NCBI GenBank assembly: GCA_964016885.1 | Contig: OZ024740.1 | Coordinates: 302,312,001-302,376,000 of the forward strand | Direction: 5' to 3' | DNA: 64,000 nt | From: Eledone cirrhosa | Lineage: Eukaryota | Shown here: positions 44,841 to 61,901 of the stretch, piece after piece | Numbering within the stretch: the first letter of the stretch is position 1 | Layout: every line of letters begins with the position of its first letter | Position numbers and translations under genes: made by a program | The notes under the pieces: generated by a model | Seen by the model: the letters and a program-made list of their open reading frames with translations, nothing else | Database searches by the model: none | Told to the model about the DNA's origin: nothing

Positions 44841-45180
44841 GTTAAAAGAATAGAGGTGTAACACACAAGTAATTATATATTGGTAAACAGAATAGAAAAT
44901 GCTGACAAATTGTTCACAGTGAAAAATAGTTTAATTAGGAATAAATGAGAATTAGTAATTGTATTGGTTAGTATTCCGTGATGTTTGCTCTGATCAGAGC
45001 AAACATCACGGACGCTCTATCTCAAAATTATTTTTGAAAAGCATTTAGAAATGCGCAACCGGTAAAACTTAAAACTAAAACTGAATACTAACCAATACAA
45101 TTACTAATTATCATTTATTCCTAATTAAACTATTTTTCACTGTGAACAATTTGTCAGCATTTTCTATTCCGTTTACCAAT
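44841..45180 (-). mobile_element. Foldback family B copy (tail on the left)
   Basis: Tail 44841-44877, arms turning at a perfect 36-bp palindrome 44976-45011; (TA)n on both sides. Confidence 0.9.
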
Positions 45181-45747
45181 ATATATATATATACATACAT
45201 ATATATATATATATATATATATATATATATATATATATATATATATATATATATATATATATATATATATATATATATATATATATATATATATATATAT
45301 ATATATATATATATATATATATGTATATATATATATATTGGTAAACGGAATAGAAAATGCTGACAAATTGTTCACAGTGAAAAATAGTTTAATTAGGAAT
45401 AAATGATAATTAGTAATTGTAATGGTTAGTATTCAGTTTTAGTTTTAAGTTTTACCGGTTGCGCATTTCTACATGCTTTTCAAAAATAATTTTGAAAATA
45501 TATATATATATATATATATATATATATATATATATATATATATATATATATATATATATATATATATATATATATATATATATATATATATATATATATA
45601 TATATATATATATATATATATATATATATATATATATATATATATATATATATATATATATATATATATATATACATATATATATATATATATATATATA
45701 TATATATATATATATATATATATATATATATATATATATATATATAT
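45181..45747. repeat. Long (TA)n tracts enclosing a family B arm fragment (45337-45498)
   Basis: Direct reading. Confidence 0.95.
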
Positions 45748-45965
45748 GAAGGCGCGTGGCTGAGTGGTTAGAGAATTGGATTCGCATTCGTAACGTTGTG
45801 AGTTCGATTCCTGGACCAGGTGATGCGTTATGTCCTTGAGCAAGACACTTTATTTCACGTTGCTCCTTCTACCTGGAGTTGCGACCGATAGATAGTATTA
45901 GCAATTGGAAAGACCAACGGAAACATTGTTCCGTCGGTCCGATATGACGAAAGTCGATGGTTCCT
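45748..45965 (+). mobile_element. tRNA-derived SINE (S1 subfamily) in (TA)n
   Basis: GGCGCGTGGCTGAGTGGTTAG box A, GAGTTCGATTCC box B, TGTCCTTGAGCAAGACACTT; ends in a GAC-GAAA-GTC hairpin. Confidence 0.85.
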
Positions 45966-45987
45966 TATATATATATATATATATAGA

Positions 45988-59694: not shown

Positions 59695-61466
59695 AAGTTT
59701 ATTTTATTAAGGTTAAATAGTAGAGTCATATTAAGTCCTTTAATAATAATGCTGTGATATATATTTCAATGGCGACAGTGGCCACACTGTTCCGTGCGCC
59801 AGTACCACGACATCGTCAGACAGCTTGTTACATAATAAGGTTATGTTTCCGAGGCAATCCAAATTGAATCGACATGGGAACGGACGAAGTGTGTGCTCTT
59901 GGGTTCTTCATCCGTTCCCTTGTGAGTACCAATTCATCCCCACCGGTCTGCGCAGGCGCAGGTCCGAAGGAAGTTGACCATTAGCTACCGCAGAGTTCAA
60001 CGAAATTCGCCTAGGCAGTTCCCCCTCTCAACCAAACAATGACCTATTCAGGCCTGTAATATATAGCTCACTGCTAGCCACCCCGTCAGTGGCAGTCAGC
60101 CGAAAGCTAGTGGGGTTGGGAGAGTGTGAGTATCAATAGGTCTCAATACAGTATGGACAGTATAATTAAGCATGGACAGTATAATTGGCCATCAATTATA
60201 CTGTCCATGCGTTGAGTGCTTGATTGAATTGCATCAATATTTACCTTAAGAATTTAGCTCCAATTAGTTGAGCGCTCTATGATGTAACCGATATAGTGGA
60301 GAAGAGAGGAACCAACCACCAGCTATACCCGGAAATTCCCTCTACCATGGGGATGGCAATCCCTGATACTGGACGGACATAAAAATAACTTTCGGCAGGA
60401 TAAATACGCGGAAACAAAAACAACAATAAACCCCTATTTTCCTGCACCAAATTGCATTTGAACAGAGGCCCCCTCGATTCAATATATATATGGACAAATT
60501 GACAATCATATTAATCAAGTATCTCCTATCTCATTTTGCATATATGTACTGTATGTATTTTTTGCATGTATTGGATTTTTTTGTGTGTTTTTTTCTTTTG
60601 TGTATTTCATATCTGTGTTTTCTGGGGGGCTCTTGTTCCATGTGATGGAAATTGTAACTATTACCCGCCTAATTACTACGTTTCATACTGTAATTTACCC
60701 TCCGTTCTACTGTACGGTACTATCTTTCAGTATGCAGATAATATATCTGTAACATTAATACCCCTTTCAAAACTTCTTACTTAAACATCTCCCTACGTAG
60801 TAGATAGTATAGGTGCACATATTTTTTTTTACTCACTTCAATCTAGGTTCTCACTTGTACATTTATTTAATTTTTAATTTTTAATTTTTAATATTTGATT
60901 TCTGATTTAAATTTTTAATTTTTAATTTTTAGTTTTAATTTCCAACTCTCATTCATAACTTGAAACCATAATACCTAGAATTAAGTATATTTTCTCTTAG
61001 AGGTTGATGGTCAATTATACTGCCCATGCTTAATGTGGGTAGTATTGAGACCTATTGATACTCATACTCTCCCAACCCCACTGGCTTTCGGCTGACTGCC
61101 ACTGACGGGGTGGCTAACAGTAAGCTATATATTACAGGTCTGAATAGGTCATTGTTTGGTTGAGAGGGCGAACTGCCTCGGCGAATTTCGTTGAACTCTG
61201 CGGTAGCTAATGGTCAACTTCCTTCGGACCTGCGCCTGCGCAGACCGGTGAGGGTGAATTGGTACTCACTTCGTTCGTTCGTTCCCATGTCGGTCGATTC
61301 AATTTGGATTGCCTCGGAAACATAACCTTATTATGGAACAAGCTGTCTGACGATGTCGCGGTACTGGCGCACGGAACAGTGTGGCCACTGTCGCCATTGA
61401 AATATATATCACAGCATTATTATTAAAGTACTTGAACATCTGAAAGTACTTCGCTTTTCCTTATTC
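59695..61466 (+). mobile_element. Non-coding foldback element (family F) with ~430-460-bp inverted arms and a hammerhead
   Basis: ~59733-60195 is the reverse complement of ~61004-61433; tail 61434-61466, then (TA)n; short TA run at the left end. Confidence 0.88.
61342..61415 (+). ncRNA. Type-I hammerhead ribozyme with an enlarged stem II
   Basis: GCTGT-CTGACGA-[45-nt insert with TGGCG..ACAGTG TGGC CACTGT CGCCA]-GAAA-TATATA-TC-ACAGC; perfect helix I; mirror copy at 59751-59824 (-). Confidence 0.75.
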
Positions 61467-61482
61467 TATATATATATATATA

Positions 61483-61901
61483 TATTGGTAAACGGAATAG
61501 AAAATGCTGACAAATTGTTCACAGTTGAAAAATGGTTTAATTAGGAATAAAAGAGTATTAGTGATTGTATGGGTTAGTATTCAGTTGTGGTTTTAAGTTT
61601 TTAAGATTTTACCGGTTGCGCATTTCTAAATGCTTTTCAAAAATAATTTTGAGATAGAGTGTCCGTGTTGTTTGCTCTGATCTGAAAATTCTATCTCAAA
61701 ATTATTTTTGAAAAGCATTTAGAAATGCGCCACCGGTAAAAACTTAAAAACTTAAAACCACAACTGAATACTAACCCATACAATCACTAATACTCTTTTA
61801 TTCCTAATTAAACCATTTTCAACTGTGAACAATTTGTCAGCATTTTCTATTCCGTTTACCAATATATAATAACTTGTGTGTTACACCTCTATTCTTTTAA
61901 C
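61483..61901 (+). mobile_element. Foldback family B, short copy
   Basis: Arms 61483-61657 and 61691-61864, tail to CTTTTAAC|TATA; (TA)n on both sides. Confidence 0.92.

Follow-up and report, generated by a model that had tools for sequence, protein, structure and literature searches.

What kind of mobile element inserts again and again as palindromes that differ in size and share identical ends? The question is raised by four insertions between positions 44841 and 61901 of a 64,000-nt stretch of the Eledone cirrhosa genome (assembly GCA_964016885.1, contig OZ024740.1, positions 302,312,001–302,376,000 of the forward strand), hereafter the window, to whose first letter all coordinates refer. 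An initial annotation grouped these insertions as family B, a single non-coding element, and ascribed them to 5′-truncated retrotransposition with snap-back. Our analysis indicates that they are very probably insertions of a Penelope-like retrotransposon (PLE). We would file family B there on architecture alone, with no reverse transcriptase (RT) linked to it; the family is new, and its structure is already known.

Four copies of a palindromic element with a one-sided tail

The three foldbacks and the lone arm described earlier were all recovered. Read towards the tail, the foldbacks B1, B3, and B4 have a common layout that consists of (TA)n, an inverted arm, a turn, a second arm, a 7-nt TA tract, a 33-nt tail, and again (TA)n. 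B1 (44841–45178, minus strand, subtype 1) begins with the tail (44841–44873), followed by the internal TA tract (44874–44880) and the tail-bearing arm (44881–44976). Its center has a 72-nt deletion, then a 15-nt remnant (44977–44991) and a GATC turn (44992–44995) that leads into the tail-less inverted arm (44996–45178). B2 (45339–45497, minus strand, subtype 1) is a lone tail-less arm of 159 nt with a (TA)n tract on each side, and its endpoint is a small natural hairpin of the family B element. The largest copy, B3 (49296–50989, plus strand, subtype 2), is a foldback with an inverted arm (49296–50120), a 5-nt loop (50121–50125), and a tail-bearing arm (50126–50949). Its 7-nt internal TA tract (50950–50956, plus strand), where the tail-less arm stops and passes into the (TA)n of the flank, precedes a 33-nt tail (50957–50989, plus strand). 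Each B3 arm contains two tandem duplications with units of ~105 nt (50126/50232 and 50503/50607), in addition to (CA)n/(TAC)n tracts. The foldback B4 (61486–61901, plus strand, subtype 2) comprises an inverted arm (61486–61685), a junction (61686–61693) with a possible 4-nt overlap, a tail-bearing arm (61690–61861), the internal TA tract (61862–61868), and the tail (61869–61901); it is predicted to fold as a single long hairpin (z −45). A (TA)n target tract (44824–44840) separates B1 from a neighboring Hydra-type PLE, and the remaining (TA)n flanks lie at 45179–45338, 45498–45747, 49252–49295, 50990–51027, 61467–61485, and 61902–61915.

The tail is one-sided in all three foldbacks, which occur in both orientations, and differs between subtypes at one position; it measures 33 nt, or 40 nt if the internal TA tract is counted. 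Three of the four copies have an inverted 5′-truncated copy at their 5′ end. The tail-bearing arms are 96, 172, and 824 nt long and share a fixed 3′ end, which points to variable 5′ truncation (n = 3). Together, the inverted arm of B1, the intervening (TA)n, and B2 make a 474-nt palindrome (45022–45495), 99% perfect, with 237-nt arms and (TA)n at its center. Candidate origins of this palindrome are a sibling insertion, a part of the B1 event, or a local duplication.

Pairwise BLAST of the copies gave E-values from 1e-34 to 1e-101. The 11-mer TATTGGTAAAC has seven exact matches in the window, every one at a family B arm end; at up to one mismatch, nine matches stand against 2.5 expected, and none of 100 shuffles reached nine. 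The arm starts as reported earlier need one correction, in that the leading TA of TATTGG is common to the flank. The 28-nt arm start occurs seven times in the 64 kb, with no additional diverged copies. As had been noted, the three foldbacks end in the same tail, whose 30-nt core has exactly three exact occurrences in the window and none elsewhere even allowing up to six substitutions. None of the eight family B ends is more than 1 nt from a (TA)5+ tract; positions within 2 nt of such a tract make up 2.5% of the window. The two subtypes proposed earlier are real, with 0–3 differences over 96 nt within a subtype and 6–8 (6–8%) between subtypes. The two arms of a copy differ at 2/96 positions in B1, 6/475 in B3 (outer part), and 2/172 in B4, or 1–2% overall, plus indels. 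Because the arms within one copy differ by so little, the insertions appear to be fairly young.

Family B has no open reading frame (ORF), in agreement with the initial annotation. A tblastn search with 17 PLE-type proteins (11 RT homologues and six pieces from the window) against the four copies gave one match (E 0.55); most of the longer open frames in B3 are translations of microsatellites. The statement that no convincing hammerhead is present was also borne out: a descriptor scan gave no match in family B, four in the window (24198, 40031, 44743, and 51184), and none in each of 10 shuffles. Rfam at the gathering score returned no matches in a search that also missed the hammerhead-like motifs and is therefore uninformative on family B; among its 72 weak matches in 39500–62100, there is no ribozyme. 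Family B had no match in plasmids or prokaryotic genomes. A direct pseudo-long terminal repeat (pLTR) from a partial tandem was found in none of the four copies, all of them short truncations. The tail forms a DNA stem of only 4 bp, which is not significant (z −0.3).

Family B has the architecture of Penelope-like insertions

As described by Craig et al. (2021, PMC8557442), PLE insertions are strongly 5′-truncated, often carry an inverted 5′-truncated copy at the 5′ end, and have a 30–40-bp tail at one end. Family B conforms to this description in all structural respects open to testing, namely the inverted copy, the one-sided tail, the fixed 3′ end, and the (TA)n target. The earlier view that the fixed 3′ and variable 5′ ends reflect retrotransposition, as opposed to a MITE (miniature inverted-repeat transposable element), finds support, and the retrotransposon can now be named as Penelope-like.

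The same build of arm, tail, and (TA)n occurs in two ORF-bearing PLEs of the window, which lie outside family B and serve as controls. The first (39791–44823, minus strand) resembles the Hydra clade and contains broken RT and GIY-YIG frames at ~41475–43880. It is near full length, with wholly non-coding inverted arms of 940 nt, 1684 nt of non-coding 3′ sequence, a tail of ~155 nt, and (TA)n on both sides. Its RT has 11 homologues, of which the four named ones come from Argonauta and Octopus (44–57% identity). The Pfam GIY-YIG match (E 0.004) does not reach the curated cut-off, and the motifs match the Hydra alignment by eye. A second copy of this element lies at 24121–24443 (plus strand), and the hammerhead-like motif has C replacing U at the second core position in three of three matches.

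The second control (45986–49251, plus strand) is a PLE-like element with broken RT-like frames plus a GIY-YIG-like frame at the C terminus, an inverted arm of ~420 nt, a 55-nt tail, and (TA)n on both sides. Its PLE identity is supported only by GIY-YIG clusters, at a score of 0.96, and by motifs recognized by eye; searches for a Pfam family, a homologue among longer proteins, and a PDB match found none, and the N-terminal piece of its RT gave a weak Atlas result. A third control (26234–26398, plus strand) is a foldback of 165 nt that has a tail of 41 nt and is set in (TA)n; it shares 84% identity over 70 nt with the 3′ end of the 45986–49251 element and has the same arm/tail boundary. It is a miniature built like B1 and B4 and linked in sequence to an element with ORFs. 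Of the 14 rows obtained in a scan from every (TA)n edge, nine, in six families, were kept; eight of the nine have a one-sided tail ending in (TA)n. Two of the five dropped rows belong to 59765–61401, in which both arms contain the TA tract. The others are the B1–(TA)n–B2 palindrome, with an overlap of 0 that scores the inner end of B2, a spurious row at 45323, and the cross-copy pair 45339/50949.

The controls also bear on what the copies represent. Family B is possibly no more than the non-coding 3′ end of a longer element because the neighboring Hydra-type PLE, ORFs included, has such long non-coding 3′ sequence and arms; for the same reason, long non-coding arms are no proof of a non-autonomous element. 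The B copies are probably 5′-truncated 3′ ends, derived from an autonomous PLE whose non-coding 3′ region is long or from a non-autonomous derivative mobilized in trans; even the 0.83-kb arms of B3 may represent solely the 3′ end of an autonomous element. Of the initial description as one non-coding element, the lack of an ORF stands, but the existence of a self-contained non-coding element is not established.

Several observations weigh against a PLE assignment. The only matches of family B to the rest of the window by blastn (word size 7) were simple repeats and short chance matches, with no link to an RT and no autonomous partner, and PLE-type proteins gave nothing better than the E 0.55 cited above. 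Four family B motifs had no match in the supplement of Craig et al., where line wrapping or divergence could hide one. Canonical PLEs and the Hydra clade carry the hammerhead that family B lacks, the target-site duplication, which varies in length in PLEs, is unreadable within the (TA)n flanks, only three copies are foldbacks, and B2 has no tail-bearing partner. At the arm/tail boundary, the RNA hairpin does not reach significance (z −1.3). Tails in the control families vary (27, 41, 55, 77–82, and ~155 nt), so that 30–40 nt is no rule here. Three family B motifs had no match in the Octopus vulgaris supplement, a text of 5,371 characters that is too short for a repeat library. A literature search, with Repbase, Dfam, bioRxiv supplements, and most subscription papers outside it, found no publication on family B or on the TA overlap discussed below.

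Among known PLEs, the Naiads (Naiad_Obim and Naiad_Ovul), which occur in Octopus, share with family B the 5′ truncation, the inverted 5′ copy, a 30–40-bp one-sided tail, a long non-coding 3′ region, a preference for (TA)n, and the lack of a canonical hammerhead (PMC8557442); their target-site duplications are likewise hidden by (TA)n. They differ in having a frame with an N-terminal GIY-YIG and an RT, together with CxC and DKA motifs, whereas no ORF is linked to family B, and the 3′ ends of three Octopus Naiads show no resemblance to family B by eye. Hydra-clade PLEs (Hydra-1_Obim, and Penelope-13_HM with its inverted 5′ copy) share the (TA)n target, which is listed for both the Naiad and Hydra families of Octopus (PMC8557442), but have a hammerhead near the 3′ end. 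If a hammerhead is required, family B would be neither a canonical nor a Hydra PLE, and a Naiad or a non-autonomous derivative fits. Members of the Penelope/Poseidon group (D. virilis Penelope, Anolis PAc, and Adineta Pen2/Pen2a) show an inverted pLTR that bears a tail of 31 bp, palindromic sequence at the inverted junction, and two RT start sites one tail apart; unlike family B, they contain an ORF as well as a hammerhead, rotifer copies have 9–10-bp duplications, and PAc primes without homology. MRC1 and other non-autonomous Chlamys elements are, like family B may be, non-coding PLE derivatives moved in trans. They differ in being green algal, often arranged in head-to-tail arrays, and in having a known autonomous partner.

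Turn positions and the joining of the two arms

How the palindromes arise is a separate question. B1 turns on the self-complementary GATC at 44992–44995. The B4 inverted arm leaves the template 3 nt beyond the GATC homologous to the B1 turn; its junction with the other arm lies 27 nt further in and may include an overlap of 4 nt. B3 turns within a tandem unit after ~825 nt, with a 5-nt loop. The turn-around points had been said to differ between copies; arm lengths do vary, but the turns of B1 and B4 fall within 3 nt of a common site, and the arms of a copy are unequal (96 nt versus ~185 nt in B1, with its 72-nt deletion, and 172 versus 200 nt in B4). The near-coincidence of two of the three turns may be chance or a hot spot, with three copies to judge from.

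Two accounts share the PLE origin. In the first, a PLE protein with RT and GIY-YIG activities, supplied by the full-length form of family B itself or by a partner, would cut a (TA)n tract and use both target strands. One strand would prime cDNA at the RNA's tail end, and the other would join at the internal TA tract 33–40 nt upstream, through pairing or through nuclease cutting there. Synthesis would stop early, and the two products would be joined head to head near the same template position, through a few paired bases or by fold-back, to leave (TA)n, inverted arm, arm, tail, and (TA)n. In vitro work on an Anolis PLE describes the tail as the interval between two RT start sites, with both target strands cut and extended (Frangieh 2024, PMC11167929), and a PLE tail of 31 bp has been reported, as have palindromic inverted junctions and deletions at microhomologies in rotifer PLEs (Arkhipova et al. 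2013, PMC3846280). We consider this model of two joined products evenly poised between right and wrong.

The other account, on the improbable side and still a serious possibility, is the snap-back of the initial annotation, in which a single cDNA folds back and copies itself and later central deletions make the arms unequal. Self-priming was proposed for the inverted junctions of PLEs as early as 2013 (PMC3846280). B1, with its turn on a self-complementary GATC, and B3, with a 5-nt loop after ~825 nt, fit it well, since independent truncations are unlikely to end so close together; other foldbacks in the window likewise have short loops. B4 does not fit. Each of its arms has sequence absent from the other, namely 27 nt upstream in the tail-less inverted arm and the tail in the other arm, and a single self-copied cDNA therefore cannot give B4 unless a central deletion followed, which would rescue it. 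As B4 stands, two joined cDNAs fit better than one snap-back. Furthermore, the B3 loop continues the tail-less arm, the opposite of what is expected of a tail-primed cDNA. For the 26234 foldback, a comparison with 300 shuffles found the loop orientation non-significant, and it carries no weight for or against snap-back.

The model of two joined products also draws on a feature shared across families. In all six families scored, an internal TA tract marks the end of the tail-less arm, with overlaps of 7, 5, 5, 4, 3, and 3 nt. With a null built from every position and phase within each family's own 3′ end, these family-specific tests combine to a Fisher p of 4.6e-4, a value obtained post hoc in a single window. 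The overlap fits either pairing with a (TA)n end or cutting of the tract by the nuclease. Craig et al. attribute the tail to nuclease resolution (PMC8557442). The pairing version is weakened because PAc, of the Poseidon system, primes without homology: in vitro, its RT initiates at a site not homologous to the cut DNA (Frangieh 2024, PMC11167929). A more far-reaching proposal would make family B a dedicated, hammerhead-free, non-autonomous PLE parasite, in which the internal TA tract sets the tail length in (TA)n-targeting PLEs, insertions are born as near-perfect hairpins, and many such families are a main source of the long double-stranded RNA (dsRNA) behind octopus A-to-I hyper-editing; taken as a whole, we regard it as doubtful.

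Explanations outside the Penelope-like elements

A foldback DNA transposon or MITE of the Mutator kind that targets (TA)n, with internal deletions behind the size differences, is very unlikely. Its model would be MuTAnT of Medicago, a foldback of 200 bp to 1.6 kb with long terminal inverted repeats (TIRs) that inserts in (TA)n and has often lost one TIR (PMC4486113); the tandem modules in the B3 arms are in keeping with it. MuTAnT has its TIRs at both termini and a 9-bp duplication, whereas all three family B foldbacks, in both orientations, have a 33-nt tail beyond the inverted repeat at one end, so that the repeats are not at both termini. In the accessible text of the MuTAnT paper, we found no mention of such asymmetry, and in the window the same build is tied to RT and GIY-YIG frames.

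A non-autonomous rolling-circle element of the Helentron/DINE-1 kind has a terminal 5′ and a subterminal 3′ inverted repeat, with internal microsatellites and tandem repeats. Family B recalls it in having one terminal and one subterminal repeat, microsatellites, central tandem repeats, and no ORF. We give it slightly less credence still, as Drosophila DINE-1 has 13-bp subTIRs, a 3′ stem-loop with a stem of 7–11 bp, and TT targets (PMC2374699), as opposed to arms of 96–825 nt that meet at the center, the 4-bp tail stem, and (TA)n targets in family B; arm length largely refutes this explanation.

An artefact of assembly or sequencing, or local palindrome formation at (TA)n, is a slim prospect for the family and possible for B2 alone. 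The B1–(TA)n–B2 palindrome is nearly perfect over its 237-nt arms, and long TA runs are hard to sequence, but an artefact does not account for four loci, two subtypes, arms that differ by 1–2% plus indels, and a common tail. DIRS-like elements combine inverted terminal repeats that carry a 3′ extension with a complementary region inside the element (features given in part in PMC8969392). A non-autonomous member of that group would share the inverted repeats and one-sided extension, yet deserves hardly any credence given that B3, the copy examined, has no internal match to the tail or its complement (best local score 9), that arm length varies among copies, and that the arms meet at the center.

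Significance for cephalopod genomes

PLEs make up 6.83% of the O. vulgaris genome, in 190 families (Bonar et al. 2026, PMC13282606), and family B is one among many such families. PLE copies of the family B type resemble MITEs and are liable to be misfiled as such. The TA overlap at the tail-less end and the side of the loop, both of which can be scored on thousands of genomic copies, would bear on PLE integration by separating two-site priming from self-priming. Porath 2017 (PMC5625713) found the hyper-editing signal to be strongest in octopus, where an exceptionally large fraction of loci can form long dsRNA, and also found heavy editing of lizard Penelope. Transcribed PLE foldbacks are thus candidate ADAR substrates. 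No A/G bias between arms, and hence no editing signature in the arm mismatches, was found in 10 foldbacks (70 substitutions).

Setting of family B in the window

The window is AT-rich, with many TA, CA, and TAC microsatellites and broken retroelements, and foldback-type families occupy 23% of it in 13 intervals. At least seven inserts, with nothing but (TA)n tracts between them, form a chain over 39738–51352, in the order Hydra-type PLE, B1, B2, SINE-like piece, second PLE, B3, and a hammerhead-bearing fragment, which suggests repeated insertion into one expanding microsatellite. The last of these, a fragment between (TA)n tracts (51028–51340), has a canonical-looking type I hammerhead at 51184 and is probably another PLE 3′ end. 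The (TA)n-flanked repeat at 45748–45965, which we take to be SINE-like (short interspersed nuclear element) from its tRNA-like start, has relatives at 24943–25134 and 55459–55528.

Further foldbacks with the tail-less arm at (TA)n lie at 305–587, 23774–23977, 25148–26154, and 26429–26618. Those at 23774 and 26429 belong to one family with tails of ~80 nt, and the tail side of the 305–587 foldback has no (TA)n following it. Adjoining B4 is a 1.7-kb foldback (59733–61466) with unlike extensions on its two sides (37 and 33 nt) and a TA tract inside both arms; it is not a clean fit to the one-sided pattern and shows, by eye, a degenerate hammerhead-like stretch at ~61345–61395. A short dispersed repeat lies beside (TAC)n at several sites (27324–27460, 28635–28827, 53317–53510, 9368–9519, and 34814–34906), with a foldback form at 9368–9519. 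Non-LTR retrotransposon remnants with RT and/or AP endonuclease frames occur at 13945–20436, 29103–34511, 36302–39077, and 2447–3355; we presume them to include two Dong/R4-like copies in tandem and Tx1-like, CR1-like, and RTE-like elements.

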